A stretch of DNA of 64,000 nucleotides from an uncultured Candidatus Peribacteria bacterium (GCA_964354865.1 CAYHBN010000001.1:488-64487); one strand, 5' to 3'; counted from the first letter of the stretch, positions 8,632-50,225 are shown. The notes: a model not told the origin generated them from the letters alone. Numbers and translations are program-made.

Positions 8632-8740
8632 ATGAGCTAGAATGCAATATAGGCTATTTATTTAATTTGTCAAGCTATTTGCTTGCTAAAAACATTCTGA
8701 AACTTACCTTATCCGAGGCATTTTACTACACTAGCCGAGT

Positions 8741-9712: not shown

Positions 9713-11353
<1,641 letters not shown>

Positions 11354-13669: not shown

Positions 13670-14957
13670 TCGTATTAATTATTTCAGAGATGCTCGATGA
13701 TCCTTTATTCAGAGGATCAAAGTTAAGCGTGAGTTCTTTCTTCTGACTCGTTGTTAACCACGAGAATCCATTATTTTTGCTTAAAAGATAGGGTTCATCA
13801 AGAGTATCAATTACAAGGCAAGACTCTCCCCATTGATCGCATACAGAGAGCGTATTTGTTCCATTTACCAAGAGAAGCCAAAAAGTATCACCCAATCTTC
13901 TTACCAAAGAAGCGTGTTCAAAAATCGGCGCTGATTGAAAATGCTGATATGTTTTTTTCTTCAAATCCATAAGAACCAATTCCCCATCTTGAATAAACTG
14001 AAAACTATCATCTTCATCGATAAGTGCGGCGCTTGCTATATCGCTAAAAAGTTTTTCACCACGAGCATCAGCTACCAGTATAGAAGAGACTGATTTTATG
14101 TTTTTTTCATTAGTCCTATCTTCTACAACAAGAGTAAAAAGGTAGTTTGATTTACCGCGTTGAACATCGGTGATTGCGGTTAATTCGTATGGCGCAGCTA
14201 TCGTTAATGGCTTAGCAAAGTCAGTCTCTGAATCAGCTGAAGATTCTATAAGAGTTAATTCGCCCTCATCATTAATTACAAAGAGCGTTTCTTCAAACTC
14301 AAACATATCGCGAATTTCTGCCAGCTTCACCAGATTTTTTTTATCTGTTACTGCCCATACTACTGAATCGGTGCCCAAGACAAAAAGCGTTTCATTAACA
14401 TATGCAAACTTTTTAATTTTTTTAATGGTAAAAGGACTTTTGAGAATGAAAGTTGATTTCTCTAAAGCTTCGCCGCGATTAAAAATGTGCACGGTTAATG
14501 ATTTTTTATCAGCATCTATACCAAAAAGGTGAGACTGATTACTCCTGAGGTCAGTAAAAACTTTCGAAGTCTCTTCATCTTTTCTCAAAATATCAGTCGA
14601 GGTAGAAATTCCAGTACTCGGAATCAACCACGGTCTCCCCAGCCTAATCAATTCATCCGCTTTGAGAAAAATCGATTTTTGCCAGGTGTGAAAGCCATCT
14701 TGTGAAAGTGCAACGGTATACGAACCGGGCACGAGCCTAAGCTCGTTCTGTGCAGGAATTTGTGGTTGACCATCGAGAGATTGATTAAAATCAGACATAG
14801 AACCGTCGAAAAGAATCACACTTTTTCTCACAATTTGCTGAGAAGAAGTATCAAACTGATATCCATACACAAAAAAGATGGCGATGACCAACGTTATAAC
14901 AAAAACAACAACAGTACCAATTCTCAAAACTTTGGCTTGGGCTTCGCCTCCATTCAT
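13602..14957 (-). CDS. hypothetical N-terminally anchored protein (PEGA-like segment)
   Basis: 451 aa. N-terminal TM (IGTVVVFVITLVIAIFFVY). LRLVPGSYTVALSQDGFHTWQKSIFL resembles a PEGA domain. The 3' end overlaps the lgt-like gene by 68 nt (convergent). Confidence 0.6.
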   Translation of the reverse strand: MNGGEAQAKVLRIGTVVVFVITLVIAIFFVYGYQFDTSSQQIVRKSVILFDGSMSDFNQSLDGQPQIPAQNELRLVPGSYTVALSQDGFHTWQKSIFLKADELIRLGRPWLIPSTGISTSTDILRKDEETSKVFTDLRSNQSHLFGIDADKKSLTVHIFNRGEALEKSTFILKSPFTIKKIKKFAYVNETLFVLGTDSVVWAVTDKKNLVKLAEIRDMFEFEETLFVINDEGELTLIESSADSETDFAKPLTIAAPYELTAITDVQRGKSNYLFTLVVEDRTNEKNIKSVSSILVADARGEKLFSDIASAALIDEDDSFQFIQDGELVLMDLKKKTYQHFQSAPIFEHASLVRRLGDTFWLLLVNGTNTLSVCDQWGESCLVIDTLDEPYLLSKNNGFSWLTTSQKKELTLNFDPLNKGSSSISEIINTIIEPATSLSASAASPTVTSEVK

Positions 14958-19784: not shown

Positions 19785-20954
19785 TTTTACTTTTTTATTT
19801 ATTATTGTATTTAACTCTTTTTATGAGTATGCACTTCTTGAAATATTCGGCGCAAATTTGCAAGTCATAAAGCTTGATATTATGGCCTTGGCTAGCCATA
19901 ATTAGCGCGTCGATAGATTGTATTATTTTATAAATATTCTGCTATGAATATCGAAACAATTTCAGACGGACAATTATACAAAATGTGCAGGAATTTTGGC
20001 TCACAGGCACTCGAAGCTCGTCGTAAATTTATCGGACTATTGCCAGAGGTAAATCGTCGCAGATTGTATGAGAAAAAAGGATTTTCTTCGATCTTTCATG
20101 TCGCGGCGGTGCTCGCAGGTGTGAGCAAAGAACAAGTGAGATTAGCTATAAACCTTGGTACGCGTTTTGAAAATATGCCTCAATTGAGAGAAATTCTCGT
20201 TGAAGGGCGCACGAGTATTAATAAATTGTCTCGAGTCGTCTCGATTGCAACGATCGAAAATCAAGCTGAACTTGCCGAAAAAGTACTGATTTTATCGAAA
20301 GTCGCGCTCGAAGTTTTTGTGCGAGATTATTTGATTGAAAAAAATCGTGAGGCGCAAAGTGCGTATGTGAATAACGAAATCGAAGAAGGACTTTTTACAA
20401 ACCAAAACGCCGACGTAGCAAGCGTTCAAAATCAAGATGGCTTGTATAAACCAGAAACCGAGGCAAAATGTCTGCCCGGGCAGACCAGTAATCCTATAAA
20501 TTCTGCAAAACCTGCCCAACTCATCAGCTACATTGAAACCCCTATGTTAAGCGATACCGTGAAACAGGCTCTCAACGAGCTGCAAGAAAAAGGAATTAAT
20601 ATTGATCAAATCATTTTAGAGGCGCTCGAAAAACGAAAAGCTGATTTAGCGCAGAGAACGGCGGTACAAATAGAAAAAGCAGAAGCAAAATTAATCGAGC
20701 AAATTGTCGAGGGGAAAACGATCTCACCTCACGTTCCTGTTGCTTCAAAACGGCTTTTAAAAGAGGAACACGGCGATCGTTGTTCTGTCCCATTCTGCAA
20801 AAACAAAGCAAAAGTTATTCATCACACTAACCGTTTTTCAATAAGTAAGTCTCATGATCCGCGTTATCTGGCTCCATTATGCGACCCGCATCATCAAATC
20901 GCACATGCGGTAGATGTGAAGGCGACGGAGATGCGAAAAAATAATGGCATTTAA
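19785..20954. repeat. copy A of a diverged ~1.2-kb inverted repeat (HNH-type gene plus ~160 bp upstream)
   Basis: Aligns by eye with the reverse complement of 35857-37030. The shared upstream blocks TTTTACTTTTTT and GAGTATGCACTT sit at matching distances from the ATG. Confidence 0.7.
19944..20954 (+). CDS. HNH-type nuclease domain protein (paralogue A)
   Basis: C-terminal CSVPFCKNKAKVIHHTNRFSISKSHDPRYLAPLCDPHHQIAHA fits an HNH/His-Me finger. The N-terminal helical region is shared with 35857..36870. Confidence 0.75.
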   Translation: MNIETISDGQLYKMCRNFGSQALEARRKFIGLLPEVNRRRLYEKKGFSSIFHVAAVLAGVSKEQVRLAINLGTRFENMPQLREILVEGRTSINKLSRVVSIATIENQAELAEKVLILSKVALEVFVRDYLIEKNREAQSAYVNNEIEEGLFTNQNADVASVQNQDGLYKPETEAKCLPGQTSNPINSAKPAQLISYIETPMLSDTVKQALNELQEKGINIDQIILEALEKRKADLAQRTAVQIEKAEAKLIEQIVEGKTISPHVPVASKRLLKEEHGDRCSVPFCKNKAKVIHHTNRFSISKSHDPRYLAPLCDPHHQIAHAVDVKATEMRKNNGI

Positions 20955-25874: not shown

Positions 25875-25881
25875 ACCAATG

Positions 25882-25910
25882 TTGACAAATTGTAAAGTTG
25901 ATGATATAGT
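25882..25910 (+). promoter_or_regulatory. sigma-70-type promoter TTGACA-17 nt-TATAGT
   Basis: TTGACA (25882-25887), a 17-nt spacer, then TATAGT (25905-25910), about 55 nt upstream of ATG 25966. Confidence 0.5.
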
Positions 25911-25965
25911 CCTATCTTCTGTTGACTCAAACGAGTCACTTTATACCCTAATTCTACACACTTTT

Positions 25966-26649
25966 ATGTCTAAAATGAACTATCTTGGTACCGCAGCCCT
26001 TGCCTCAGTCCTCTCTCTCGCTCCTGCACACGCAGAAGCTGCAAAGCGAAAAGACACCGTAAAAGACGAAAATGCCGAAAAAATTGGTAGTTTTCAGCTA
26101 AAAATAGGCGCTATGGCCGGTTTTGTGATTGATCCTGTTGAAGTGGCTATTGGTGGCCATATGCATACCACAAATCCGAATGAAAATGCGGCGCTCGACG
26201 CACATGTGGCTTTGCACCTTAACGATGATTTTAAACTTGGTGTAAAGTTTCAAAATGATACACATAAAACAGGCCCCGACGAAGCGAGTCTTGGTGGCTT
26301 TATAAACACTAAATTCGGCCATCGTGATTTATTAGGATTCGATGCAGGCGTACAATTCAAACTTCAGCGACATGCGGGAGATGTAAGCCAAATTGCGGGA
26401 TTCGATACACGATTTACCGGTGAATTTTATAATGGAATGTATATCGGAGCTGGAGCTGAAGGCGAATTTCACCCAGAACGCAAAAATACCTGTGTATTAG
26501 GTGAAATTGGTTATCGTGGTATGGATGTGGGCGGCCAACATGGGCTTGAAATTGGTATGAATGCTGGTCCTTGTTCAGTAGATACGGGTAACATTAATGC
26601 ATCTGAAGTCGGGTTTCATTTATCTTTGATTCCAAACTTCGGCAAATAA
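25966..26649 (+). CDS. secreted beta-rich protein (small porin-like composition)
   Basis: Start chosen at ATG 25966. MSKMNYLGTAALASVLSLAPAHA/EA looks like a signal peptide. The remainder is made of short alternating Gly/aromatic/polar segments. Confidence 0.6.
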   Translation: MSKMNYLGTAALASVLSLAPAHAEAAKRKDTVKDENAEKIGSFQLKIGAMAGFVIDPVEVAIGGHMHTTNPNENAALDAHVALHLNDDFKLGVKFQNDTHKTGPDEASLGGFINTKFGHRDLLGFDAGVQFKLQRHAGDVSQIAGFDTRFTGEFYNGMYIGAGAEGEFHPERKNTCVLGEIGYRGMDVGGQHGLEIGMNAGPCSVDTGNINASEVGFHLSLIPNFGK

Positions 26650-26676
26650 TTAATGGTAAAAATCGTCGAAACTGAA

Positions 26677-26707
26677 AGGGGTGTGCGGCCATAGGCTTCA
26701 CACTCCT
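26677..26707 (+). terminator. hairpin after the beta-rich protein gene
   Basis: AGGGGTGTG-13 nt-CACACTCCT gives a 9-bp stem with one G-T pair. There is no U-tract, so this is weak. Confidence 0.25.
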
Positions 26708-26716
26708 ATTAAAAAA

Positions 26717-26725
26717 TGGTATACT
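26717..26725 (+). promoter_or_regulatory. extended -10 TGGTATACT upstream of the 1790-aa gene
   Basis: TGnTATACT, 25 nt before ATG 26751, followed by an A/T-rich leader. Confidence 0.4.
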
Positions 26726-26750
26726 AATAAGATTAATAAAAATTAAAACT

Positions 26751-29700
26751 ATGGGTGCACAACAAGAAAATGCAGACCGAGCACAAGCGGTGCTCACACT
26801 CGAGAACTTGCGAGCAGATCAAGACGCAATTCCAAGTACTCCACCTATTGATGGGAATAAACCAATGGCGGCAGAAATAACTACCGCAATTACAAGGGCT
26901 ATTAAAGATAAATATGGAGTCTATACATCTGAAGCTTTTGTTCGTGAAAACATACCACAAGCGGTACTCGCGCAAATGACCGGTGATGTAGATTTATATG
27001 ATGATTTGAACGATGAATGGGATGATATTACCTATGCAAATTTCGATCCAAAAAAACTGATGTTTAGTTTTCATGAAGCAGATGGTGACCTTATTGCAGA
27101 CTTCAATCTCGAACCAGTTTTAAAACCATTCCTTGAGAAAAATTTTGAAGATAAAATTCTTCAACGACGAAGAGCAGCGCAGGTAAGAGGCTACGATCGT
27201 CGCAGAGATATGGCAGATGCAGTAGGACAATTAAATCTGCTCCCACTCAAATACAACGAAGGTTCTAATCGTCCAAATGTACCAAAGAAAGAAAAAGATG
27301 AAGTAGATAAACCGGCAGCAGGCCAAGCAAAGTCAGAAGGCCAGGCAGATCCAAAAAAACCAGAGGGAGTGAATGTTCCGCCTACGCCACCGGCTCCAGA
27401 AAAAGCTCCAGAAGTTCCCGCTTACGAAGAAAAACCGAGCGATGACATGCTCAAAACATACGAGATTAAACGACAAAAACGCGAGAATGTTTTGACATCG
27501 ACCGTTCGTGAAAGACCAGATATTGTTTTAAAAACTCGTGCTGAACTTGACCCGGCAATGGTGCGCGATGCCACCGACGAAAATCCAGATACGTTCGATA
27601 AAAGCTGGAGAAATTTCAACAACTTCTCAGAAATGGAGCAGTTGATGAAAGAAGATTACGCAAAAGAAACTGGCTATAGCGTGAATCCATTTGTAGTTGC
27701 GGGATTCAACACCGATGCACTCAAAGACCTTATTAAACAAGACGCGATAAAAGACAATACGCTTTCATTCGATGAAATTTCAACTCGTGTGTTTACAGAT
27801 CGATATTACCAATTTAAAGAAGTATTAACCACGTATGGTGTTACTGAAGAATGTTTTGACCTTCTTGAGTCAGACGTTGGCAGCGATGTCGACGAAATTG
27901 ACGATCCGCTCGACGAAGACACACTTTTAGAATCATTTCAAAAAGTATCAAAAAATAATGATCGACTTTCTAACGTGAAAGACCAAGGTGAAATTAAAGA
28001 TGCAGGAATTCGAAAACTATACCCATATAAGGAGCAGATAAAAAATGTTACTCAAGTATTGGGCGATTACTGCGCCGCAATCACGACTCTTATTAACTAT
28101 TTGCAGAATGCAAAGTTAAATGTGGGCGAGGAGCTTGAAGATGAAAAGACACTCGATAAAGATCATTCTCCTGTCGCCGTGGCGCTCCGAGAATTATTCT
28201 TGAATAATAATGGAGATCACAATTTACGACGATACGACGATGAACTACATGAAGTTCTAGGATTAGGAGAAAATCCACCAAAAGCAAAATTTAAAGACTT
28301 GAATGGAAACGTCGCCTTTGTAGATGGTGACTGGTTTAACCAAAAACAATCAGCCGAGACAGCGTACAAATTGGCGTATGAAGCGGCACAACCACCACTT
28401 GGAAAAAACGGTGAAATTCCTGAAGGTCTTGACCCGGAAGCAACTAAAATTTATATAAATCACTTACTAAATATTGGTGCAACGACAATTCCTGCAATTA
28501 AAGCAAATGAAAGTATTGGTAAAATTATCGAAGATTTGAAAGAAGCGGGAGTAACGGTACCGCCAGACAATACAGTCATCGATTTCAAAAACGATCCAGC
28601 GATGGATCAGCATAATTTATACAAAGCACTTGAAGTTCACCGTATTTCAGAGCTCACTGAAGATCGCGTTTCTCCTGCTCCAAAAGCAAAATTCAAGGCA
28701 CGTCATTTATTAATGCGCGTTGGTTCAGTGGTATACCAAAAAGAGCAAGAACAAGCCAATAGAGATGTCATTCTCGACAACAAAAGAAAGACACTCAACC
28801 TAAAAAAAGAGCAGGTCGCAAGTATTATGGAGGGACTGAAAGCGACGGGAAAATTTAATCAAGAAGAGTTACAACAAGTTGAACAACGAATGCTTTTGGG
28901 CATTATGCTTGTTGGTAATGTAAAAGCTGATAACGTGTCTCAAGTTATCAATGGTATTGGTGTAAGCGGAGGAATCCCGATCGACCTTGGTCACGACGTG
29001 ACTTTGACCGTTGGCGGCGCCGCAATGGTTGGCAATGGATTTGGATTGAACGCCGGAATTGGTAAAAAATTCACTGTTGAAAAGGGAACGACTATTACAT
29101 TAAGCGGTGGTCCCGGAATTAACTTTGGAGAAAAAACGGTTGTCGGTTTATCGGGCAACGTTTCACTCACAAAAGAGCTCGAAAGTTGCGACCTCTATGT
29201 AGAAGCTGGTACAACTGCGGGCTTCGATGTCGATAACGGCAAATTATTCCCAGGATTCAACGCAGCAGTTGGCTTTAACCGAACTCGCGCAGCAGTGGCA
29301 GAAAATTATAAAGCATCTATCGATACCGCATATAGCGATGCGGGCATTAATAAGTTAGATGCAATGACTCCCGAAGCACGTTATGAAGAAGTTTTGAAAA
29401 ATCCTACTAAATACCCAGGTCTCGGTGACTTGGCACTCCGACTAAAACAAGCAAGTACGCAAGGTACAACCGGAAAAATTATGCCAGGGATGAATGAGCG
29501 CATTTTTGCGGATTCATACGAAGCTTTCAAAAAAGAAAAGAGAGAGCATTCAATGCAAGAGGCCGTTGATGGCGTAACGTTTGCAGGATTAAAATTAGGA
29601 GTTGCAACAACGGTAATGCCATCTCCGTTCCCACCATTCTTTCCCGTTTCAATTCCAACTCCGAATATTGGTGTTGAATTTAATTTATGGAAACGAAAGT

Positions 29701-32123
29701 TAACGTACATTTCAACAACTCCGGAAAAGAAAATTAATGGATTAGCAGCAGATGCTATTCAACAAAAAATCATTGAGAACCTTTCAAAACAAGGCAGCGA
29801 AGTGATGCAAATAAACGGTCCTGTTATTGATCTAAAATCTTCAGGAACGATTGTGTACTTACCGGGCGCCGGTACAGATGGCAAAGGCGAGTATGTTTTA
29901 TCAGATGTAACTGCAATTGATTTTTCACAGTTCGTCACAAAAAATCCTGACCAACTTGGCCAAATTAAACAAGAACTGGCTCAAAATGCCGGCATGAGTG
30001 TGAAAGAAGCAAAGCCAGGACAACTCACCTTAACTCCTTATGAAGCACACGGACAAATTGACGTTTACGCAGACCCAAGTTTGCCGAAAGATGTGTATGT
30101 TACATGGAAAAACGGCGACATGATTTTGTCGGCACCAAACAATGCAAATTTAAAAATTGCACGTTTCGATAAAACACTTCCATTACAAGATAACGGTGTC
30201 GTTGAAATATCAACGATAGTTATTACTGACAAAAATAATTTTGACTTTAATGCGATTCAACAACTTGCAACACACCGACTTACAAAATTCCCTGGGCGTG
30301 CGTGGGTAAGGAGCCGCGTGAACGAAGCACTTAATCCAAATGCGCCTACCACAAGCGCAATCGTTGACTACACCACCTTTACACAAGATATTGAACCAAC
30401 ACTGAAAGACCGTGTTCAGTCTGGCCCCGTTGACGATAAAGAATATCGAGATCGCCAAACAGAAGCCGACAAGGCACTGCTTCACGAACTTACGCGAGGG
30501 CAGGCGACCGCTCCTAATTATTCGATCGATCCACGTGTAAAGAGTTATGTTGAAAGACTTGAAAAGGAATACGACAAAGAAAAAAATCCAAAGAAGTACC
30601 CTAAAATGTTAGGAGACGAGTTACAGAAACACAAAGAAGATATTGCAGTTCTTCAAACAATTAAGGCGTACATCACCGAAGGATACGTAGTTGGAAAAAA
30701 CTTCAAACCAATCACCTCTCACGATGACATTCAGAGCCTTGAACGAGTAATTAATGTAGCGCTTGAAAAAGAAGGGCTTCCAAAAATACCTAATCATCAA
30801 GAGTTTGCCTTTGTTATTCGCCGATTTACCGATGCAACTTTCTTGCAGTTCGACGAAGAAGTAAAACCAAAAGATAGAGATGCGTTCTACAAAAAGAAGT
30901 TTGAGAACTATGACATGCCGATGTTTATCAAAGCGCTCGAAGCAGATCCTGATCCAACGCTGCGATTTACAGAAGAAGAGGGCAAGGCCGTAAGGGATTT
31001 GCTCATGGCAAACTTGAGCCGAATCGACTTTAATGCTACACCCGAAGAAATTAAAAATGGTACGTTCTTAATGCAAGATGTCGGCAATAAAATCCTCAAA
31101 ATAAAAGGTGAAGCACGCTATGTTTTCCAGAATGTTCCCGGCGCTCGCAATGAAGGAGTTTTGGGACGCATGGATATTAACACCACCGACGCGGGAATTA
31201 CAAAAAAACTCGCCCAGTATCTCATTAGAAAGAACTCTCCGTATAAAGAACGCACTGCTGTAGGAGTACAAGTCAATGAAAAAACCGATGCTCCAATTGA
31301 GAAAAAACGCGAGATGGCGCATGAATTTAGATCAATCTTTTCACAACGAGTAATGACCGTGTTGCCAGCAATGTTGACCGACGTAGAAATGCATCAGATT
31401 ACAAAATTCGTGCATGATCCAGATGGATTTGCGCTCAATCAAAAAGATCACGACGCACACCACAATACAGACGTAATGCGCTTTGATACCATTAATAAAG
31501 TGCTTGGATATTTAGACACGATTAGAGCCGCCGAACTTGCGGGACAAAAAACCGTAAAACTTTCCGAAAACTTCGAAATGCACATAATGCCAATTGCCTA
31601 TATTGGTGCGTACTCAGTTTGTACCAACTATATTAAGGCGCTTGAAGATGAACTGTTTGTGCTTGTTGGTAAAGAGACAAACACCGTACGAATTCCGCAT
31701 TGGACCGGAGCAATGACCGAACTCGCAATACTGGCCAAAACAGATGAAAAATTCAGAATCTTCGCCGTTGTACTTGGTTTGGCAGTGCCAATTCCACGAG
31801 CATCGAAAGAAGTTGGTGAGGAAGATGAAACAACGACAACCTGTGAGGGAGATGACTGTCCTAAAGAAGGCGACGGTCCAGGTGGCATTATTGGTGAAGG
31901 GGGCGATACTAGAGAAGGCGGTGGCGACTTCAGAATTAGAATTCCTCGCCTCACGTTCAAGGTTCCGAACCTCGATGAGCAGCCGAAGCCAATTGCGGGT
32001 GTACACCTCTCTGGTGGCGGCCTCAATGCAAATTTAAAAGCTATCAATACAATCTCTACAAGTGATACCGCAAGCGCAGGTCTCATTAAACCAACCGGAG
32101 ATGACGATACAAACGTAAACTAA
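26751..32123 (+). CDS. giant hypothetical protein (1790 aa)
   Basis: Uninterrupted 5.4-kb ORF. No signal peptide or TM seen. Acidic and Lys-rich N-terminal third, a Gly-rich beta-like block (28953-29285), and a Gly/Asp/Glu-rich tail containing CEGDDC. Confidence 0.8.
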   Translation: MGAQQENADRAQAVLTLENLRADQDAIPSTPPIDGNKPMAAEITTAITRAIKDKYGVYTSEAFVRENIPQAVLAQMTGDVDLYDDLNDEWDDITYANFDPKKLMFSFHEADGDLIADFNLEPVLKPFLEKNFEDKILQRRRAAQVRGYDRRRDMADAVGQLNLLPLKYNEGSNRPNVPKKEKDEVDKPAAGQAKSEGQADPKKPEGVNVPPTPPAPEKAPEVPAYEEKPSDDMLKTYEIKRQKRENVLTSTVRERPDIVLKTRAELDPAMVRDATDENPDTFDKSWRNFNNFSEMEQLMKEDYAKETGYSVNPFVVAGFNTDALKDLIKQDAIKDNTLSFDEISTRVFTDRYYQFKEVLTTYGVTEECFDLLESDVGSDVDEIDDPLDEDTLLESFQKVSKNNDRLSNVKDQGEIKDAGIRKLYPYKEQIKNVTQVLGDYCAAITTLINYLQNAKLNVGEELEDEKTLDKDHSPVAVALRELFLNNNGDHNLRRYDDELHEVLGLGENPPKAKFKDLNGNVAFVDGDWFNQKQSAETAYKLAYEAAQPPLGKNGEIPEGLDPEATKIYINHLLNIGATTIPAIKANESIGKIIEDLKEAGVTVPPDNTVIDFKNDPAMDQHNLYKALEVHRISELTEDRVSPAPKAKFKARHLLMRVGSVVYQKEQEQANRDVILDNKRKTLNLKKEQVASIMEGLKATGKFNQEELQQVEQRMLLGIMLVGNVKADNVSQVINGIGVSGGIPIDLGHDVTLTVGGAAMVGNGFGLNAGIGKKFTVEKGTTITLSGGPGINFGEKTVVGLSGNVSLTKELESCDLYVEAGTTAGFDVDNGKLFPGFNAAVGFNRTRAAVAENYKASIDTAYSDAGINKLDAMTPEARYEEVLKNPTKYPGLGDLALRLKQASTQGTTGKIMPGMNERIFADSYEAFKKEKREHSMQEAVDGVTFAGLKLGVATTVMPSPFPPFFPVSIPTPNIGVEFNLWKRKLTYISTTPEKKINGLAADAIQQKIIENLSKQGSEVMQINGPVIDLKSSGTIVYLPGAGTDGKGEYVLSDVTAIDFSQFVTKNPDQLGQIKQELAQNAGMSVKEAKPGQLTLTPYEAHGQIDVYADPSLPKDVYVTWKNGDMILSAPNNANLKIARFDKTLPLQDNGVVEISTIVITDKNNFDFNAIQQLATHRLTKFPGRAWVRSRVNEALNPNAPTTSAIVDYTTFTQDIEPTLKDRVQSGPVDDKEYRDRQTEADKALLHELTRGQATAPNYSIDPRVKSYVERLEKEYDKEKNPKKYPKMLGDELQKHKEDIAVLQTIKAYITEGYVVGKNFKPITSHDDIQSLERVINVALEKEGLPKIPNHQEFAFVIRRFTDATFLQFDEEVKPKDRDAFYKKKFENYDMPMFIKALEADPDPTLRFTEEEGKAVRDLLMANLSRIDFNATPEEIKNGTFLMQDVGNKILKIKGEARYVFQNVPGARNEGVLGRMDINTTDAGITKKLAQYLIRKNSPYKERTAVGVQVNEKTDAPIEKKREMAHEFRSIFSQRVMTVLPAMLTDVEMHQITKFVHDPDGFALNQKDHDAHHNTDVMRFDTINKVLGYLDTIRAAELAGQKTVKLSENFEMHIMPIAYIGAYSVCTNYIKALEDELFVLVGKETNTVRIPHWTGAMTELAILAKTDEKFRIFAVVLGLAVPIPRASKEVGEEDETTTTCEGDDCPKEGDGPGGIIGEGGDTREGGGDFRIRIPRLTFKVPNLDEQPKPIAGVHLSGGGLNANLKAINTISTSDTASAGLIKPTGDDDTNVN

Positions 32124-32131
32124 CTAGTACT

Positions 32132-32302
32132 ATGAAAAAATATATTATTATCGCACTAGTAGTAACAGTTCTGATAGCTGGACTCTACCTAACTATGAAA
32201 ATGATTAATGGCCAACCTAAAAGCCAGGCAAAGCTCCCAAGTACAAATAACTATGCCATGAATAAAACAGGATCAGCAGGAATAATAAAATCAAAAGAAT
32301 AA
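32132..32302 (+). CDS. small single-pass membrane protein (56 aa), below ORF-track cutoff
   Basis: ATG 32132, TAA 32300-32302: MKKYIIIALVVTVLIAGLYLTMKMINGQPKSQAKLPSTNNYAMNKTGSAGIIKSKE. It fills the gap between the two large genes. Confidence 0.45.
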   Translation: MKKYIIIALVVTVLIAGLYLTMKMINGQPKSQAKLPSTNNYAMNKTGSAGIIKSKE

Positions 32303-32322
32303 ATAAACGCAAATTAATTCAC

Positions 32323-35300
32323 ATGCTTCTCAGAAATAAAACAAAAATTCTCGTTTCACTCTCAATCATGCTCATAAGCATGTTAAGTACATCAGTTGTA
32401 TATGCTGATACTATTTATGGCCGCAGCTGTGAAATACGAGTATTCCCCTTTAATCCACAAGGACAGCTAAAAGAGTACGATGCTGCTGAGGATTTCCTGA
32501 CTCCTCCGGTCATTGATGAAGGGAACACAAATGCATGTTCACAACACCTCGATTTCACACATGCAAATGGGTACGGACCTACGGGGCCATATCATCCACA
32601 AAATCCTATTCCTCTTGAAGAAAGTACGATCAGCGAAAATGCTACCGAGATAACAGTGCCAACAGCGTATCATGAACATGCATTTTTCAATGACTACACA
32701 ATCGCACAAAATGATCGATATTATTACAAAGCAGCTTTAAATAAATTCTTGATCGTAGCATACGTAGACGATAATCAAGATGGTATAGATAACATTAAAA
32801 CAGATCATATCGTATGCGACATGCCGTTTCCACCGGACGTAAGTGCAGAAACAAAAGCTCGCATTAAACCAATAATTGAAAGTTGTAATACAAATGGGAA
32901 TCCATTGCCGATCCTCGGAGGTACAAACATTTTAAGAGAAGATACTCGATCTGACAGTGGTAAAAAAATAGTAAAAGTTACTTGGACATTCGGAATAAAT
33001 GACGACGAAGATTCACCGGCAGTATTTGCAGAAAATGTTCCAAATGATGGCGGGAATTTTACCGTTTATGATGTGACTGATGGCAATCCCGCAAGCTTAC
33101 AAGTAGATTTAACAAATGAATACAATAGAACGTTAGGCTTTAACGGAGCTGGATTTGGACTCAATCTACAGTCAGCCAACAATATTCAAGAAGATGCATG
33201 GAGTGCAACTACGGTATCGTATGCATATATTCAAAATTATCGCATTCCAAAAGCGACATACTCAGAAGAGACAGCCGGACTGGGATACGATGAAAATCAC
33301 AACGGATGGCAATTAATTCCAAATCCCGACCCATCAAAGAATCCAGAATCAAATATTAGAATGCCTGTTGGATCCCTCACTTCAATCTGGCGACAACCCA
33401 CTCCCGATATTCCAGAAACACCAACCTCAAAACTCACACTGATTAAACAAGTTCTCGATGAAAATAATGCTGTAGTAAACGACAACCCAGACCTTATTCA
33501 GTCATTCAATCTCTACGCAGAAAAAACCGACCCAGCACAAGCTGAAGCGATGAATGCAGCACCTCGAGGACGACCGGTATCTAATCCTCAAAATCAACCT
33601 GCTCGTCAAAGACGAGCACCCGTTCAACCGAAAAGATTATCACTAGGCGGAAGTATTTTCGAACTTGCTCATGACCTTGTTGGCATACCGCTCGAAATGC
33701 AAATGGCCTTCGGTGACCGCGTAAATTACAAGAGCGGTGAAACGCACGATGTCGAAGCTGACAGCACCTATACCATTGGTGAAGAACAAAAAGAGGGATA
33801 CACGTTACAGAAAATTGAATGTAAAAATAGCGCAAGAGCAGATGATACGTATGGACGTCTTGGCGCAAATCATCAAACACTTATTCCTGCGGGAATCGAT
33901 GTCACATGCCGACTTACCAACAAATCAACTGACTCTGGTGAAGAAACATGTCCAGATGGAAGCCCAATCCCAGAAAACGGAGTATGCGAAAATCCCCCAC
34001 TCGAGTGTCCTGATGGACAAGTACTTAATATTACAAGCGGACTATGTGTACCTATTATCTGTGAAGAAAATGAACACCTCGTCGGCAACGAATGTGTTCC
34101 CGATAATCCAGAAGGACCAGTCTGCGATCCTGGATATTTCTCCAATGGAGTAGAGTGCGTACCAAATATTCCAATAGAACCAATTTGTCCTCCAGGATTT
34201 GTTCAAGGCCCGCTCGGCTGTGTGCAATTTAACCCACCATCAGGTGGCGTCCCCGCTGGTAGCTTCGATAAAACGGTAAGCACGCTAAATGACGGCCCAC
34301 TCTCGGTCATTCAACAAGGAGACAGTGCAAAATATAAACTCACGTTTACAGCAACACAAAGAAATGTTGACTCAGTAACTATCAAAGATGAATCGTTTGG
34401 CTATAATAAGGATTTTTCCGCAGCGCGCGAAACAGGATTCAAAGGCAGCCTCTTTAGATTACAACCAATTTTTGATGGCAAACTCTTTAGAGTCATTAAA
34501 AAAATTCCTGGATATCCAGATAACATTATTGAGCGTTGTAATCCAATCATCAATGTATTTCCCGACGGCTCACAAAGCTGTTACACAAGCAACGATTTTG
34601 TTGCAGGCATAACTGTCAAAGATGTACGCCAAGGAACGAGCGTTTCAGTTGAATTAGTTGCTCAACTCATCAATTCAAGAATTAATCCCGCTGTGTGTGC
34701 AAACGAAATTGCACGTGGCAACACCGGATTCTGTGGCGAACAATTCCACAACATTGCGAGTGCAGTCGACAGCGAGGGGCGTAATTATTCAGATTTTGCA
34801 GACCTCTTTACGCCATGCCCATATTTGCTTACACGTGGTTTGGGCGACATTATTCTTGAACAAGGATTTACCTACGGCAGCGACATTACCGCATGTTTTT
34901 CATTGCCGAATATTGAAGGCGAAATTATTGAACCTTTATTCCCTATCGAAGAAGAAGAAATTGTAAAAGGAGGTAAAGAAGCACCATCGCCAGCACCGCT
35001 CATTCCTTCAAACTTACTTTGTAAAAATAGTAATAAAGACGGTGGCGCTGTTTCTCAATACAGCAATCCAATCAAAAATCTTTCAAGTGGATTATGTGAG
35101 TTACAGCAATCAATTTCACAAAGCCTCACGTCAGATGCAATTCGTCAAGCAATCAGTGATAATATTGTGAGGTTTACCAGGGAGAATGCGAACTTGAATA
35201 TTGCTACCATTAGAGGTGAAGATATTAATGAAGTAAATACTGTCACCCTAAGTAATCAAAATTATAAAGTGTATAAAACAAATAATGCCCTTGAAGTAAA

Positions 35301-35763
35301 AAATGTATCACCGGTGAAAGAAGGATCACGAACCTTCATCATTCAAGGCAAAGACCTTACTATTTCGAGCAACATAGTCTTCGACGAACAAGTTGTGCGC
35401 AACGCTTCATTCAAAGAGACCCCTTCAATCGCATTCATCGTTATCGGTGGCGACATAAAAATTGCACCGAATGTCACTCACCTCGATGGTGTGTATGTAT
35501 CGATCAAAGATCCTAAAAAACCAAATGGCCCAGGAGGACAAATTACTGGCACTGGCGCGGCTGATTTAGGGGTTTCGTCACTCGAATTCAACGGCGCAAT
35601 CGTGGGCGACATTGAACCACTCTTTAAGTCTCGCACCTTCGCCGGTGACGCAAAAAAGAATCAAGGAACAATCGTTATAAATTACGGCGCATGGTTGTAC
35701 TACAACTTGCCACCCGTCTTGCGCGACTTGGTAAATCTTCAGCAAGAGCAAATGGCGCGGTAA
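32323..35763 (+). CDS. large secreted protein with Cys-pair mini-repeats (1146 aa)
   Basis: Signal peptide MLLRNKTKILVSLSIMLISMLSTSVVYA/DT. Five tandem C-x10-12-C units (33949-34221). TLIKQV...YTIGEEQKEGYTLQKIEC resembles prealbumin-fold surface domains. Confidence 0.8.
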   Translation: MLLRNKTKILVSLSIMLISMLSTSVVYADTIYGRSCEIRVFPFNPQGQLKEYDAAEDFLTPPVIDEGNTNACSQHLDFTHANGYGPTGPYHPQNPIPLEESTISENATEITVPTAYHEHAFFNDYTIAQNDRYYYKAALNKFLIVAYVDDNQDGIDNIKTDHIVCDMPFPPDVSAETKARIKPIIESCNTNGNPLPILGGTNILREDTRSDSGKKIVKVTWTFGINDDEDSPAVFAENVPNDGGNFTVYDVTDGNPASLQVDLTNEYNRTLGFNGAGFGLNLQSANNIQEDAWSATTVSYAYIQNYRIPKATYSEETAGLGYDENHNGWQLIPNPDPSKNPESNIRMPVGSLTSIWRQPTPDIPETPTSKLTLIKQVLDENNAVVNDNPDLIQSFNLYAEKTDPAQAEAMNAAPRGRPVSNPQNQPARQRRAPVQPKRLSLGGSIFELAHDLVGIPLEMQMAFGDRVNYKSGETHDVEADSTYTIGEEQKEGYTLQKIECKNSARADDTYGRLGANHQTLIPAGIDVTCRLTNKSTDSGEETCPDGSPIPENGVCENPPLECPDGQVLNITSGLCVPIICEENEHLVGNECVPDNPEGPVCDPGYFSNGVECVPNIPIEPICPPGFVQGPLGCVQFNPPSGGVPAGSFDKTVSTLNDGPLSVIQQGDSAKYKLTFTATQRNVDSVTIKDESFGYNKDFSAARETGFKGSLFRLQPIFDGKLFRVIKKIPGYPDNIIERCNPIINVFPDGSQSCYTSNDFVAGITVKDVRQGTSVSVELVAQLINSRINPAVCANEIARGNTGFCGEQFHNIASAVDSEGRNYSDFADLFTPCPYLLTRGLGDIILEQGFTYGSDITACFSLPNIEGEIIEPLFPIEEEEIVKGGKEAPSPAPLIPSNLLCKNSNKDGGAVSQYSNPIKNLSSGLCELQQSISQSLTSDAIRQAISDNIVRFTRENANLNIATIRGEDINEVNTVTLSNQNYKVYKTNNALEVKNVSPVKEGSRTFIIQGKDLTISSNIVFDEQVVRNASFKETPSIAFIVIGGDIKIAPNVTHLDGVYVSIKDPKKPNGPGGQITGTGAADLGVSSLEFNGAIVGDIEPLFKSRTFAGDAKKNQGTIVINYGAWLYYNLPPVLRDLVNLQQEQMAR

Positions 35764-35856: not shown

Positions 35857-36870
35857 TCACTCGCGCATTTTATTTCGCCGCATCTCCGATGCTTTAACAT
35901 CGACCGCATGTGCAATTTGGTGATGAGGGTCGCACAGTGGGGCTAGGTAACGAGGATCGTGTGAATGGCTAATTGAAAATCGATTTGTATGGTGAATAAC
36001 TTTCGCTATATTTTTGCAAAATGGAATTGAGCACATTTCCCCGTGTTCATCTTTCAATAGGCGTTCAGTTGCGACGGGAATATAATGAGAAATTGGTTTT
36101 CCTTCGACAATTTGCTCGATTAATTTCTGCTCAGCTTTCTCTACTTGCACCGCTGTTCTCTGCTCTAAATCCTTTTTTCGTTTTTCAAGCGCCTCTAAAA
36201 TGATTTGATCAATGTTAATTCCTTTTTCTTGCAGTTCGTTGAGTTGTTTCTTCACTTCGTCGCCCAAAATTGGGGTTTTAATGTATGTGATGAGTTGTGC
36301 GGGTTTTGTAGAATTTATGGAGTCATCGATCTGCCCGGGCAGACATTTTGCCTCGGTTTCTGGCTTAGGAAAACCATCTTGATTTTGACCGCTTGCCGCA
36401 TCGGTGTTTTGGTTTGTAAAAAGTCCTTCTTCTATTTCGTTATTCAACTGCGCACTTTGTGCAATGCGATTTTTTTTAATCAAATAATCTCTGACAAAAA
36501 CATCGAGCGCGGCTTTCGATAAAATAAGTACTTTTTCGGCAAGTTCAACCTGATTTTCGACCGTTGCGATCGAGACGACTCGTGACAATTTATTAACACT
36601 CGCGAGCCCTTCAACTAAAATTCCTCTCAATTGTGGCATATTCTCGAATCGATTATCGAGGTTTATCACTAATCTCACTTGTTCTTTGCTCACTCCCGCA
36701 ATCACCGCTGCAAAGTGAAAAAGTGATACAAACTTTTTTGTTTCGTACAGGCGACGCGCGTTTACTTCTGGCAAAAGACCGATGAATTTGTTTCGCGCCA
36801 AAAGTGCCTCACGTCCAAATTTCCGGCACATTTCGTACAACTGACCGTCTGAAATTGTTTGAATATTCAT
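35857..36870 (-). CDS. HNH-type nuclease domain protein (paralogue B)
   Basis: Start at ATG 36870 (MNIQTISDGQLYEMCRKFG), aligned with paralogue A. C-terminal CSIPFCKNIAKVIHHTNRFSISHSHDPRYLAPLCDPHHQIAHA. Confidence 0.75.
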   Translation of the reverse strand: MNIQTISDGQLYEMCRKFGREALLARNKFIGLLPEVNARRLYETKKFVSLFHFAAVIAGVSKEQVRLVINLDNRFENMPQLRGILVEGLASVNKLSRVVSIATVENQVELAEKVLILSKAALDVFVRDYLIKKNRIAQSAQLNNEIEEGLFTNQNTDAASGQNQDGFPKPETEAKCLPGQIDDSINSTKPAQLITYIKTPILGDEVKKQLNELQEKGINIDQIILEALEKRKKDLEQRTAVQVEKAEQKLIEQIVEGKPISHYIPVATERLLKDEHGEMCSIPFCKNIAKVIHHTNRFSISHSHDPRYLAPLCDPHHQIAHAVDVKASEMRRNKMRE

Positions 36871-39877: not shown

Positions 39878-41527
39878 ATGGAAGAAATTCGCACCTGTGC
39901 ACTGTCAGGAAACAAATTCACACTCGATGAACAGGATTTGGAGCATTACAAAAAACTGAACCTACCTTTACCGACACTCTGCCCGCAAGAGCGATTACGA
40001 AGACGGCTGACCTGGCGCAATGATCGAACTTTTTATAAACGTGATTGTGATTCATGCAAAAAATCAATCCTCTCACTCTATACACCAGATTCTCCCTATA
40101 CTATTTATTGTCCTACTTGCTGGTGGAGCGATTCATGGGATGCGTACTCACTTGGCAGAACATATGATTTTTCACGAGCTTTTTTAGAGCAATATGAAGA
40201 TTTAATGAGAATTGTTCCTCGCCTCGGTGTCGATCTAGTTAACTGCGAAAATAGTGAGTTTTGCAATTACTGCGGTGATGACAAAAACTGCTATTACGAC
40301 ATTGCCGGTGAAGCAAACGAAGATTGTTACTACAATCTTTTCACTAAATACTCGAAAAATAGCGTAGATAACACCTTTCTGTATCACTCAACACTCTGCT
40401 ACGAATGTATTTCATGCTCAAATTGTTATAACTGTTTTTATTCAACGTATTGCAACGACTCAAATGATCTCTATTTTTGCTACGACATGAGGGGCTGTAA
40501 CAACTGCTTATTTTCGTACAATTTGAGGAACAAGGAATACTACATAATGAATGAACCGTACACTAAAGAGGAGTATTTCAAAAAATTAGCTGAGTTTCAG
40601 TTATCTACTGTTAACGGGCAAGAAAATGCCCGAACTAGCTGGAATGAATACCGAAAACAAAATGCACTGCATCGTGACATGTATCTGACCAACACAGAAA
40701 ATTGCACCGGCGATATGATCTCAAATTCAAAAAATACACATTTTGGTTTCAACGCTACAAATTGTGAGGATTCTAAATTCCTCTTCGACGTATTAGATGC
40801 GAAAGACTGCTATGACCTAAATTATTCACTCTACAAACCAGAACTTTCAACCGAGCTTATTAGCACGCTCAATCTAACGTACAGTGCGTACAATCTTGCG
40901 AGCCACTACTGCAGCAGTATTTTCTACTGCGACATGTGCAATAACTCTAAAAATCTTTTTGGATGTATTGGGATAAATCGTGGTGAAAATTGTATTTTGA
41001 ACATGAAATACTCGATTGAAGAGTATGAAGATTTGAAGGCAAAGATAATTGAACAGATGAAGGCAGATGGCAGTTACGGTGAATTTTTCCCAATGTCACT
41101 TTCACCACATGCATATAACGAAACCGTCGCTCAAGATTATTTTCCACTAACAAAAGATGAGGCGTTAAAAATGGGATTACGTTGGAAAGATACAGATAAA
41201 CGTGAATACAAATCATCTAATGCAGTGATTCCCGATAATATAGCCGATGCTGCTGATTCCCTCTCTCAAGCAATATTGGCATGTAACGTTTGTAACAAAA
41301 ATTACAAGGTAATCAAACAAGAGTTAGCTTTTTACCGACAGCAACAAATCCCCATTCCGCGGGAATGCCCAGAGTGTCGTCATCAAAAACGCAGCCACGC
41401 AAGAAATCCTCGAGTGCTTTTCGAACGAACATGTTCACAGTGCGCAAAAAATATTCAGAGCACCTTCTCACCCGACCAGAGCGAAAAAGTGGTATGCGAA
41501 GAATGCTATCGGGCTGCGGTATATTAA
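39878..41527 (+). CDS. Cys-rich protein with homologous zinc-ribbon-like modules at both termini
   Basis: 549 aa. The N-terminal module (CALSGNKF...LPLPTLCPQERLRRRLTWRNDRTFYKRDCDSCKKSI...YCPTCW) and the C-terminal module (CNVCNKNY...IPIPRECPECRHQKRSHARNPRVLFERTCSQCAKNI...VCEECY) align. The middle has many CxxC/NC repeats. Confidence 0.7.
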   Translation: MEEIRTCALSGNKFTLDEQDLEHYKKLNLPLPTLCPQERLRRRLTWRNDRTFYKRDCDSCKKSILSLYTPDSPYTIYCPTCWWSDSWDAYSLGRTYDFSRAFLEQYEDLMRIVPRLGVDLVNCENSEFCNYCGDDKNCYYDIAGEANEDCYYNLFTKYSKNSVDNTFLYHSTLCYECISCSNCYNCFYSTYCNDSNDLYFCYDMRGCNNCLFSYNLRNKEYYIMNEPYTKEEYFKKLAEFQLSTVNGQENARTSWNEYRKQNALHRDMYLTNTENCTGDMISNSKNTHFGFNATNCEDSKFLFDVLDAKDCYDLNYSLYKPELSTELISTLNLTYSAYNLASHYCSSIFYCDMCNNSKNLFGCIGINRGENCILNMKYSIEEYEDLKAKIIEQMKADGSYGEFFPMSLSPHAYNETVAQDYFPLTKDEALKMGLRWKDTDKREYKSSNAVIPDNIADAADSLSQAILACNVCNKNYKVIKQELAFYRQQQIPIPRECPECRHQKRSHARNPRVLFERTCSQCAKNIQSTFSPDQSEKVVCEECYRAAVY

Positions 41528-48002: not shown

Positions 48003-50225
48003 TTAAAATCCTCCGCCCGGTGCGGTTATATAATCTGTACCGCTCACGTCTTTAAATTCTTGTGGAGAGATAATTGGCACAATACCTGTTCTGCCACTCG
48101 TCGGAATCGGCGAACTCGATGAACGAATTGGTGCGCCTGAATCTTGTACGGGAACAATAAGTTCTAGGTCTGAACCCGCTACATCGTAAATTTTAAGACC
48201 AGAAATGAGCGGCTCTTGATTTAACTCAAGATCACGAATACGACGCTCGAAACGAGGAAGCGCATTGGTATATAAGGTTTGTAATCGTTGCAATGCCCGA
48301 TAGCGCGCTTTAAGCGTAACGACTTGCTGAGCGGTGCGCGTAAAATCAGACAATAATCCTTCAGCGACTTGACCGTTAAGTGCCGTCATTTGTGCAAAAA
48401 ATGCGGTTTCTGTCGTCGTTTGTTGAGCGGTACGTTTTGTTAGCTCACTATTTGTAATGTCGATTTCTTGCTGCACATCTCCAAGCGTTTCATTCGCCTC
48501 TTTATATAACTGATTCATAAGTAATAACTGTGACTTTAAACGTGCACGACGATCGGTCGATTGATTCAGAAGTTTATTTATATCTACTTGGTATGCATTT
48601 TCTAAAAGTTTGAACTGCGTAATATATTTAGCAAAAGGAGTGACCGCACGTGCTGCTTCTCCAATTGCAATACCAGCCTGAACGCCAATATCGGTAATAT
48701 AAATTGGTTCAGCCGCAATTCCCTGACCCACTTGTACTGATCCAGCGATACCACTATCAATAGTATTTTCAGTCGGTTGTTTTGGGACTGGTCTAGGCGT
48801 TTGTTCAGTTTGTGAATTAGAACCACCGAGTCCTACCTTTTGTAATATAACTCCGCCATACGAAACCCATGCCAAATGAATGGCATACACAAGCCCAATA
48901 AAGACTGCGATGTATATAATGAGTCTCACTATTTTTGCAGGAGTAATACCAAGTTCATTAATAAGTTCTTTAACCTGCGCAATAAATCCTTCTCCGTCAT
49001 CTATACTTGGAACATCTTCTTTTTTCTTAATACTACTTAACAAATCGGCCGCCGCTAAAGCGGATGCATCGTCATCTTCTTCAATAAATTCTGCTTCGAT
49101 AGCTTCTTGTTTATCAATTTTCTTCACAGGCTCTGGCCGTGCTGGCATCGGTGCCGGTGCAGGCCGTGGAGCCTGCGGCGCAGGAGCCTGTACTGGTTGA
49201 ACAGGACGTGGGGGAGCCGGAGCAACAGGCGGCGTTTGAGGACGAGGCGGCTGTGGAGCAACTGGCGTTGGTGCTTGTGGTCGTGGTGGTTCGACAGAAC
49301 CACTTGCCGGGTACCCGCTTTGCGGACGCGGTGGTACCGGAACCGACGGAGTCGGCACAACGGGAGCTGGACGCGGTGGCTGAGGTACTGGTGGAGCTGG
49401 TTGAAAAACAGGCTGTGCTGGTGCAACAGGCCGAGGCGGTTGAGGGGTAACAGGTGTTGATTGAACAGGACGAGGCGGCATAGGAGCTACTTGCGGCTGC
49501 GCGAGCACGGGCGCCTGGGGCGCAACCGGCGTTTGCGGCATTGGCCGCGGTGGTTGTGGGGCAACTGAAATGGGTGCAGCGCTTTGCGTCGGCGCAACCG
49601 GCATGTTTGGTTTTGGTGGAATCGGACCAGGAGGAGGTACGGGACGTGAAGTTGGTATCGGTGAAAGTGGCTGATGTGCTGTCGGCGTTGGCGCAATTGG
49701 TCTCGGCGGCAGTGGCGAAGGCGTCGGAGCAGAAACCGTTACGGGCGGATTTGGGGCCACTGGTCGTGGTGCTTGAGGCGCGAGAGTCGGCACAACAGGA
49801 ACCGTTTGAAGTATTGGTCTCGGCGGCAGTGGCGCTATCGGAGTTGGTGTTACCAGTGATGGTGCAATTTGCGGTGCAGTTGAAACTACCGGCAGCGGTT
49901 GCGGCGGTAATGGCACAGCAGCTGAAGGTGTAGCTACTACAAGAGCAGGTTCCGGTGCGGGTGTCGGCACAGCAACAACTGGTGCGGGCTTATCTAACTG
50001 CGCAGGTTTTACCTGCGGATTCGTCTCTCCAATTGCGATATCATCACTCGCCCACATTGAAAGCAGATCATCGACCGTATTTTCTTTTTTGGGCGATGGT
50101 TGTTGCGCTGATTGCGTTGTCGCTGGCACGATCGGTGTATTTATAGGCGCAGCCGTACCACCCGACGCAGTGGTCGAGTCACCCCCTGTTACCGCTCCTG
50201 TTTGTTGACTTTGTTCATCTGCCAT
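48003..50225 (-). CDS. hypothetical protein: long Pro-rich repeat region, one TM, coiled-coil C-terminal half
   Basis: 740 aa. About 290 aa of PQPPRP / PPRPV-type repeats (roughly 49130-50000), then the TM LIIYIAVFIGLVYAIHLAWV. The many overlapping ORFs here are by-products of the repeat. Confidence 0.7.
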   Translation of the reverse strand: MADEQSQQTGAVTGGDSTTASGGTAAPINTPIVPATTQSAQQPSPKKENTVDDLLSMWASDDIAIGETNPQVKPAQLDKPAPVVAVPTPAPEPALVVATPSAAVPLPPQPLPVVSTAPQIAPSLVTPTPIAPLPPRPILQTVPVVPTLAPQAPRPVAPNPPVTVSAPTPSPLPPRPIAPTPTAHQPLSPIPTSRPVPPPGPIPPKPNMPVAPTQSAAPISVAPQPPRPMPQTPVAPQAPVLAQPQVAPMPPRPVQSTPVTPQPPRPVAPAQPVFQPAPPVPQPPRPAPVVPTPSVPVPPRPQSGYPASGSVEPPRPQAPTPVAPQPPRPQTPPVAPAPPRPVQPVQAPAPQAPRPAPAPMPARPEPVKKIDKQEAIEAEFIEEDDDASALAAADLLSSIKKKEDVPSIDDGEGFIAQVKELINELGITPAKIVRLIIYIAVFIGLVYAIHLAWVSYGGVILQKVGLGGSNSQTEQTPRPVPKQPTENTIDSGIAGSVQVGQGIAAEPIYITDIGVQAGIAIGEAARAVTPFAKYITQFKLLENAYQVDINKLLNQSTDRRARLKSQLLLMNQLYKEANETLGDVQQEIDITNSELTKRTAQQTTTETAFFAQMTALNGQVAEGLLSDFTRTAQQVVTLKARYRALQRLQTLYTNALPRFERRIRDLELNQEPLISGLKIYDVAGSDLELIVPVQDSGAPIRSSSSPIPTSGRTGIVPIISPQEFKDVSGTDYITAPGGGF

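Follow-up and report, generated by a model that had tools for sequence, protein, structure and literature searches.

A conserved gene set for a giant protein, a small membrane peptide and a stalked secreted protein in Candidatus Peregrinibacteria: a candidate cell-surface module

Introduction

Attachment and nutrient uptake are poorly understood in CPR bacteria (Candidate Phyla Radiation, also called Patescibacteria), except for type IV pili and a few cultured Saccharibacteria. Surveys of CPR genomes report no PilQ, no TonB system and no Gram-negative envelope, and an outer membrane is thought to be absent (PMC6744442); the known host-contact secretion systems are absent as well (PMC9166423). 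Candidatus Peribacter riflensis, a member of the Peregrinibacteria, encodes large exported Cys-rich proteins that vary between strains and have been proposed to act in attachment (PMC4736985), and in the related Vampirococcus giant surface proteins have been proposed for host attachment (PMC8080830). Here, we describe a locus that is best filed under this kind, the lineage-specific large surface-protein loci of CPR bacteria. It consists of four genes, (a) to (d), at positions 25966-35763 of a 64,000-nucleotide stretch of DNA from an uncultured Candidatus Peribacteria bacterium (GCA_964354865.1 CAYHBN010000001.1:488-64487), and this whole stretch is referred to below as the window. New to the kind are the uncharacterised proteins (a) and (b) and the ends of (d). 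With a probability of roughly 0.4, we propose that b, c and d make up an operon of the Peregrinibacteria, specific to this lineage and passed on vertically, that builds a structure of the cell envelope and surface for attachment.

This proposal fits both the large exported Cys-rich proteins published for Peregrinibacteria (PMC4736985) and the giant surface proteins proposed for related CPR predators (PMC8080830). The proteins of Ca. Peribacter riflensis belong to the same candidate phylum as (d) and share with it signal peptides and Cys-rich repeats, which have been likened to those of Myxococcus (PMC4736985). That account, compared here by description, is a general inventory that contains neither a b-c-d set nor a giant signal-less partner nor a transmembrane peptide.

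The four genes and their products

All four genes are read from the same strand:

25966-26649, + strand: gene (a), secreted protein of 227 aa (signal peptide aa 1-23, mature part ~204 aa)
26751-32123, + strand: gene (b), a 1790-aa acidic protein, the founding member of a Peregrinibacteria-only family of 1500-1800-aa proteins
32132-32302, + strand: gene (c), a 56-aa single-pass membrane peptide
32323-35763, + strand: gene (d), secreted protein of 1146 aa (signal peptide aa 1-28)

An earlier note on this DNA had described four co-directional open reading frames (ORFs) with gaps of 8 nt (b-c) and 20 nt (c-d), and both the frames and the gaps were found as described, together with an a-b spacer of 101 nt. 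No Shine-Dalgarno-like leader precedes any of genes a-d. The note's view that none of the products has a recognisable domain or family holds for (a), (b), (c) and the ends of (d), which, judged by sequence and profile comparison, belong to no named or characterised family; it fails for the middle of (d), where a SpaA_4-like domain occurs in the window copy and SpaA_2 domains in three homologs. These SpaA domains were the only matches when the four proteins and the family alignments of b and d were scanned against Pfam, NCBIfam and PHROG, and profile searches of the PDB with three family alignments found none.

Distribution, gene order and selection

All named relatives of these genes come from Candidatus Peregrinibacteria, a CPR lineage, in agreement with the CPR-type host that had been considered. 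A scan of GTDB representatives returned a sole match, 'MAG: Candidatus Peregrinibacteria bacterium isolate nzgw393'. A HMMER search of 1.84 billion representative proteins with aa 601-1790 of (b) returned 18 further proteins that are 23-29% identical, 1,500-1,760 aa long and collinear with the query; only two of them are named, both as hypothetical proteins from Candidatus Peregrinibacteria. The b family can be aligned over its full length, with conserved blocks at aa 1-165, 215-1255 and 1295-1685 followed by a low-complexity tail. Metagenomes scanned with the d alignment yielded 8 loci, and the same scan with the b alignment yielded nothing. In all, roughly 20 homologs of b and 15 of d were recovered. 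The organisms are present, for example, in the groundwater or enrichment material behind SRR22388142 and SRR25018348. A word-indexed protein search gave three matches for b, two for a and only the query itself for d; it overlooked the d homologs in two related loci, L001 and L002, so that its silence is not evidence of absence.

The loci share a common layout, in which truB and the genes for a Mur ligase, a flavokinase and tpiA lie on the minus strand and are followed by b, then a small ORF and d, and in most cases holA. Wherever a contig spans b as well as d (9 distinct loci, identified with local hidden Markov models), b stands directly upstream of d, between tpiA and holA, and the small transmembrane ORF is the only gene ever found between them. 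This adjacency holds even where b is only 23-29% identical. The interval between b and d consists of spacers of 8 + 20 nt or less in the close clade and of ~150-170 nt in distant loci. Gene (a) was found in the window, in L001 and in L005, with a 34-aa tail of it at the edge of L002, and is absent from all more distant loci, where tpiA adjoins b directly across a gap of 65-125 bp. Because (a) is missing from those loci, the conserved unit is taken to be b-c-d and (a) a clade-specific addition, by this reading a recent one. The conserved four-gene set that had been proposed is thereby reduced to three members: b, c and d were found together wherever a contig allowed the test, whereas (a) is absent from distant loci and separately promoted.

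All four genes are under purifying selection, with ratios of nonsynonymous to synonymous substitution (dN/dS) of ~0.14 (b), 0.10-0.18 (d), 0.2-0.3 (a) and 0.3-0.5 (c), values that were obtained at saturated dS. The fixed locus and its conservation across Peregrinibacteria indicate that the module behaves as core cell biology and not as accessory cargo. An origin as phage, viral or mobile-element cargo was rejected, since the chromosomal location is fixed and no such relatives were found: neither b nor d has a tblastn match in 50,697 phage records, none of a-d falls into a PHROG cluster, and IMG/VR holds no relative.

The stalked secreted protein (d)

Both the signal peptide and the Cys-pair repeats that had been noticed in (d) are present. 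The Sec signal peptide is followed by a conserved N-terminal domain (~aa 30-370, ~340 aa), in which Cys residues occur in pairs and the motif A-x-H-x-H-A-(F/Y)-x-N-D is invariant, then by a middle part that varies, and by a strongly conserved C-terminal domain of ~320 aa (~aa 830-1146) that ends in QEQ(V/M)AR, the window copy ending in ...LQQEQMAR. Two elements are recognised in the middle of the window copy:

33733-33924, + strand: SpaA-type prealbumin-like (Cna-B-like) domain, aa 471-534 of (d) (SpaA_4, PF24514; E 2e-5, 25.7 bits against a cut-off of 27.3)
33949-34221, + strand: five Cys-pair mini-repeats C-x(10-12)-C, aa 543-633 of (d)

SpaA_2 (PF19403) is found in 3/7 members of the d family with E values down to 2e-20, and the middle of the homologs is made of SpaA_2 domains, long poly-Pro linkers or Ig-like repeats. 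The two conserved ends have no match in Pfam, NCBIfam or the PDB, apart from one marginal PDB match at E 0.99. As far as its sequence can be read, the layout is that of a stalked surface adhesin with constrained ends and variable reach, d being 990-1,400 aa long among the homologs.

The nearest comparison is with the SpaA/Cna-B adhesins and pilins of Gram-positive bacteria, which likewise have a Sec signal, a variable stalk, a modular build and disulfide-rich inserts, and whose SpaA_2 or SpaA_4 domains are matched in the (d) family at the scores given above. Unlike these, (d) has no pilin motif, no LPxTG, and neither a hydrophobic C-terminal tail nor a transmembrane anchor, and its end domains match nothing. 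The wider motif LPxT[GAN] is absent from (d) and (b) alike.

The small membrane peptide (c)

Gene (c) had been missed as an ORF, and its product, as the earlier note had it, is a 56-aa peptide with a single membrane pass. The one hydrophobic stretch spans residues 1-27, and the predicted topology places the N-terminal Lys inside and a tail of ~30 aa outside. A counterpart of 47-77 aa with one transmembrane segment and an N-terminal Lys cluster exists in all relatives examined (L001, L002, L006, L007, L009 and L010), at low sequence identity between counterparts. Likenesses of (c) to YukC and NheA lie far below the cut-offs and were taken to reflect the transmembrane segment or composition only. 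A possible sortase signal, LPSTN, was likewise rejected, as it is not conserved in orthologs.

The giant signal-less protein (b)

Protein (b) carries a net charge of -57 and, as had been stated, neither a signal peptide nor a transmembrane helix, and its homologs have none either; no 19-residue stretch exceeds a Kyte-Doolittle value of 1.6. AlphaFold2 (AF2) modelling of aa 601-1700 from 22 sequences gave five concordant models with a predicted local distance difference test score (pLDDT) of 57-64. Their central element is the following:

28953-29699, + strand: Gly-rich amphipathic beta-meander of (b) (AF2 pLDDT ~50-87 in the region)

The meander, the most conserved and most Gly-rich part of the modelled protein, is predicted to comprise seven long strands (aa 735-843), a helical insert (aa 845-940, pLDDT 75-87) and two further strands (aa 943-983). 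Its strands have one hydrophobic face and one Gly/Ser/Thr face, and the highest beta-moment window in b lies here (z 4.9). Beyond it, the models place a beta domain at aa 1080-1190 and then a helical domain that is best predicted at aa 1470-1620 (pLDDT 80-94).

Sequence comparison places (b) in no family: 0/20 aligned members have a Pfam match, and in the PDB the family profile has no match and the searches gave two marginal matches only (E 0.3 and 0.64). A similarity to YpeB far below the cut-off was taken as a likeness of transmembrane segment or composition only. Structure comparison with Foldseek gave nothing significant, all E values being at least 0.06, and most of the top local matches, including all of high probability, are membrane barrels; these include BtuB, OpcA (probability 1.0), Occ porins and the designed TMB2.3 in the PDB, and in BFVD they are phage 'outer membrane protein beta-barrel' domains. 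Barrels of 8-10 strands of the outer-membrane protein (OMP) type (OpcA, 1k24; TMB2.3, 6x1k; the phage OMP domains) resemble the meander in having 9-10 long antiparallel strands with hydrophobic and Gly/Ser/Thr faces. They differ from it in that the meander lies in mid-protein, carries a helical insert of ~95 residues, has no signal peptide, and matches none of them by sequence or profile, the structural E values being those just given.

In one metagenomic relative, L016, b is split into two ORFs at 4916-7912 (999 aa) and 7916-9799 (628 aa) of that contig, at profile position ~1019. The split may be natural, may mark a pseudogene, or may stem from an error in sequencing.

Promoters, hairpin and start codons

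Two promoter-like sites and a hairpin were located upstream of (a) and b:

25882-25910, + strand: promoter-like site of gene (a), TTGACA-17-TATAGT with TG (extended -10); 11/12 consensus positions
~26677-26707, + strand: hairpin in the a-b spacer; folding free energy -21.3 kcal/mol, z -3.7, 0/200 shuffles folding as well
26697-26725, + strand: promoter-like site of the b-c-d operon, TTCACA-17-TATACT with TG (TGGTATACT); 10/12 consensus positions

The hairpin and the extended -10 that had been reported in the a-b gap are therefore present, and both are conserved in four genomes. The 3' arm of the hairpin overlaps the -35 element of the b promoter. Conservation of the hairpin extends from the window to L005 and L001 and, in part, to L002, and the most distant of the four genomes shows a shorter stem and a G.U to A-U change. 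A canonical intrinsic terminator was rejected, as no U-tract follows the hairpin.

The site upstream of (a) scores highest in a 12.5-kb region and is stronger than the b-c-d site; so close to consensus, it suggests that the product of (a) may be abundant. With two promoter-like sites, (a) appears to be separately promoted and b-c-d look like one operon, a view with which the short b-c and c-d spacers (8 and 20 nt) and the presence of only one conserved promoter, upstream of b, agree. The promoter of (a) also bears on its start codon. The NCBI model of (a) has 256 aa, begins with MLTNCKVDD and is 29 codons longer (25879-25965). Some 30 nt at the promoter are 100% identical in L005, third positions included, while the (a) proteins are only 54% identical, and because the stretch has none of the wobble expected of third positions, the NCBI model is judged to translate promoter DNA. 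Longer GTG or ATG starts were rejected on the same ground, and the ATG at 25966 is the correct start of the gene. The NCBI model of (d) appears to err in the other direction: at 1127 aa it is 19 codons shorter (32323-32379) and drops a signal peptide present in every homolog. Corrected starts for (a) and (d) in the public annotation are thus one outcome of this analysis.

The small secreted beta-protein (a)

The signal peptide that had been noticed in (a) is readable directly in its N-terminus, MSKMNYLGTAALASVLSLAPAHA/EA, which has n, h and AxA regions. The mature protein of ~204 aa contains 13.7% Gly, few Tyr and zero Trp, and its period-2 hydrophobic moment lies 4-5 standard deviations above shuffled sequences and exceeds that of every other ORF in the window. 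Such amphipathic alternation is also expected in soluble beta-proteins and beta-sandwiches. The AF2 runs used a two-sequence alignment, and 1/5 models was folded (pLDDT 62, predicted template modelling score 0.55), with 11 antiparallel strands, each hydrophobic on one face and charged or His/Gly on the opposite one; for the remaining four models the pLDDT is 27-38. Compared with the PDB by Foldseek, 48 of the 50 matches listed are transmembrane beta-barrels and the other two are low-probability barrels of fluorescent proteins. Tom40 and VDAC lead at E ~1e-3 (best E 7e-4, Tom40), and the best TM-scores, 0.46-0.52, belong to the 12-strand porins KdgM and NanC, and to FapF, PcoB and a designed 12-strand barrel.

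The earlier suggestion that (a) is a porin-like beta-barrel therefore survives in part: the AF2 and Foldseek resemblance favours it, while model confidence is low and no OMP family matches. The low-confidence model is suggestive of a small barrel of 11-12 strands. Like KdgM and NanC (4fqe, 2wjr), (a) has a Sec signal, ~200 mature residues, a modelled up-and-down antiparallel arrangement of ~12 amphipathic strands with short turns alternating with longer loops and, in two orthologs, a C-terminal Phe (...PHF in L001 and P0006; the window copy ends in ...PNFGK and the L002 copy in ...VVPGL). Unlike them, it has no OMP sequence similarity and no Trp/Tyr girdle, 11 strands are counted instead of 12, and it comes from a member of the CPR, where the outer membrane is believed to be missing. 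No Pfam match was found at E <=1, no NCBIfam match, and no PDB sequence or profile match at E <=10; no profile match to KdgM/NanC or to any OMP beta-barrel family was significant. A BamA-like gene is absent from the 64-kb window, which covers part of the genome. Homology of (a) to the Gly-rich region of (b) was considered and rejected (BLASTP E 0.8; hhalign probability 0.8%).

A putative attachment module and its alternatives

If b, c and d do build one surface structure, their parts might be divided as follows. Protein (d) would be exported by Sec and display its conserved distal domain; the stalk that carries this domain would differ in length and consist of SpaA/Cna-B-type domains, of Cys-pair repeats locked by disulfides, or of poly-Pro linkers. 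The bitopic peptide (c) would probably anchor or assemble the complex at the cytoplasmic membrane. Protein (b) would be the conserved giant base, whose Gly-rich amphipathic meander may associate with or insert into a membrane, and (a) would be a later accessory of one clade, a strongly and separately promoted small secreted protein with a barrel-like fold. That b, c and d associate physically, that the beta regions insert into a membrane and that the structure serves attachment we infer from the gene order, signal peptides, domains and models described above.

Several observations weigh against this proposal. The lack of a signal peptide or transmembrane helix leaves the exit or membrane association of (b) unexplained, and (d) has no recognisable anchor, neither LPxTG nor a C-terminal transmembrane segment. 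The AF2 models are of low confidence (mean pLDDT 62-64, with (a) folded in 1/5), the Foldseek matches have weak E values, no lower than 7e-4 with (a) and 0.06 with (b), and dyad amphipathicity is expected in soluble beta-sandwiches too. Finally, an order conserved among housekeeping genes could be inherited adjacency with no functional coupling.

This last point leads to the alternative that fares best, although we hold it to be doubtful: that there is no shared apparatus, and that the genes are independent, adjacent and lineage-specific. Protein (b) would then be a cytoplasmic scaffold with a soluble beta-sandwich, (a) a soluble secreted sandwich or lipocalin-like protein and (d) a stand-alone adhesin. 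Soluble proteins have amphipathic strands as well, (b) has no export signal of any kind, (a) has its own promoter and is dispensable in most relatives, and the profile comparison of (a) with (b) shows no homology. The whole neighbourhood is syntenic (truB, Mur ligase, ribF, tpiA ... holA), so that adjacency may merely have been inherited. Against independence stands the persistence of the b-c-d adjacency through divergence to ~25% identity with only a small transmembrane ORF intervening, which is typical of operons whose products interact; moreover, the inside of an 11-12-strand barrel, if wholly hydrophobic, would be hard to fill without a core element, and no such element is predicted. Even a conservative reading leaves a giant-protein family with a defined set of partners and a promoter.

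A bolder claim, which we consider unlikely, is that genuine membrane beta-barrels occur among the gene products of a CPR lineage viewed as monoderm, one free-standing and 12-strand-like in (a), the other embedded in (b), a conserved protein of 1,600-1,800 aa with no signal peptide. Low-confidence barrel predictions are noteworthy in a lineage thought to have no outer membrane, which is also a reason to doubt them. Membrane barrels would challenge the monoderm picture of the CPR or reveal a mechanism of insertion into host membranes: either an unseen outer lipid layer exists, or the barrels are exported into the membrane of a host to which (d) adheres.

The host-membrane version, taken by itself, is a shade less probable still. 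It holds that (a) and the (b) meander are exported and form beta-barrels in the membrane of another cell, host or prey, with (d) binding and (c) helping export, and that a CPR cell dependent on others for its metabolism would take up nutrients through this conduit, in the manner of beta-pore-forming toxins or donated porins. The Foldseek resemblance of both beta regions to membrane barrels speaks for it, as do their faces, hydrophobic on one side and Gly or polar on the other, and the near-consensus promoter of (a) with the abundance it suggests. Bacteria thought to have neither an outer membrane of their own (PMC6744442) nor host-contact secretion systems (PMC9166423) would also need some other route. 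Yet neither a secretion signal nor a known route of export exists for (b), most of the family does without (a), so that the module cannot depend on it, and both the models and the structural matches are weak. Homology to beta-pore-forming toxins (aerolysin, haemolysin/leukocidin, MACPF/CDC, binary-toxin B) was found for neither (a) nor (b), nor for their family profiles, in Pfam, NCBIfam or the PDB, and no pore-forming toxin is among the top 50 Foldseek matches of either. If the host-membrane version were true, the locus would be a new kind of host-access device in Patescibacteria.

Very improbable, finally, is a true outer-membrane porin-type protein (a) in a clade with an outer lipid layer, to which (b) adds a barrel: the signal peptide and ~204 aa in 11-12 amphipathic strands do equal KdgM and NanC in size and strand number (TM-scores 0.46-0.52), and 2/4 orthologs of (a) end in ...PHF, with a C-terminal Phe like that of the OMP beta-signal, but the window copy ends in FGK and the L002 copy in PGL, the absence of Trp and scarcity of Tyr leave no aromatic girdle, no OMP family of Pfam matches even at E <=1, and surveys report no PilQ, TonB or Gram-negative envelope in the CPR (PMC6744442).

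Surroundings of the locus

The window is chromosomal and rich in housekeeping genes, namely tRNA-Arg, priA, a tyrS/trpS-type synthetase, pyrG, lgt, rpoD, dnaG, truB, a Mur ligase, riboflavin kinase, tpiA, holA, gatA, relA/spoT, H+-PPase, dnaA and rseP, and its G+C content is 0.39-0.45 almost throughout. The gene dnaA lies at 58520-59941 on the minus strand, ~23 kb downstream of the cluster, which places the module near the replication origin region. The cumulative GC skew falls steadily across the window and has no clear turning point.

One gene separates (d) from holA in the window and lies outside the module:

35857-36870, - strand: HNH-endonuclease-like gene (PHROG HNH, E 4e-5)

It is 81% identical to a second gene at 19944-20954 (+), and no such insertion is present between (d) and holA in L001, L006, L010 or L016. 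It resembles a selfish gene that has proliferated in this genome. The two copies are inverted with respect to each other and bracket ~15 kb that include the whole cluster, and such a pair could mediate an inversion.

Further ORFs of the window have no Pfam match. One at 39878-41527 (+) encodes 549 aa with 6.6% Cys and a CxxC-like N-terminal spacing, and has neither a signal peptide nor a transmembrane segment. Another, at 48003-50225 (-), encodes 740 aa and lies in the sole G+C-rich patch of the window (0.50 versus 0.39-0.45); its product begins with a low-complexity segment in which Thr, Ala, Gly, Gln and Pro abound, carries a single hydrophobic stretch at its centre and contains zero Cys. 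Among several ORFs of 450-640 aa, those at 3543-5453, 11371-12795 and 13602-14957 may be other lineage-specific envelope proteins, the second having a C-terminal and the third an N-terminal transmembrane segment.

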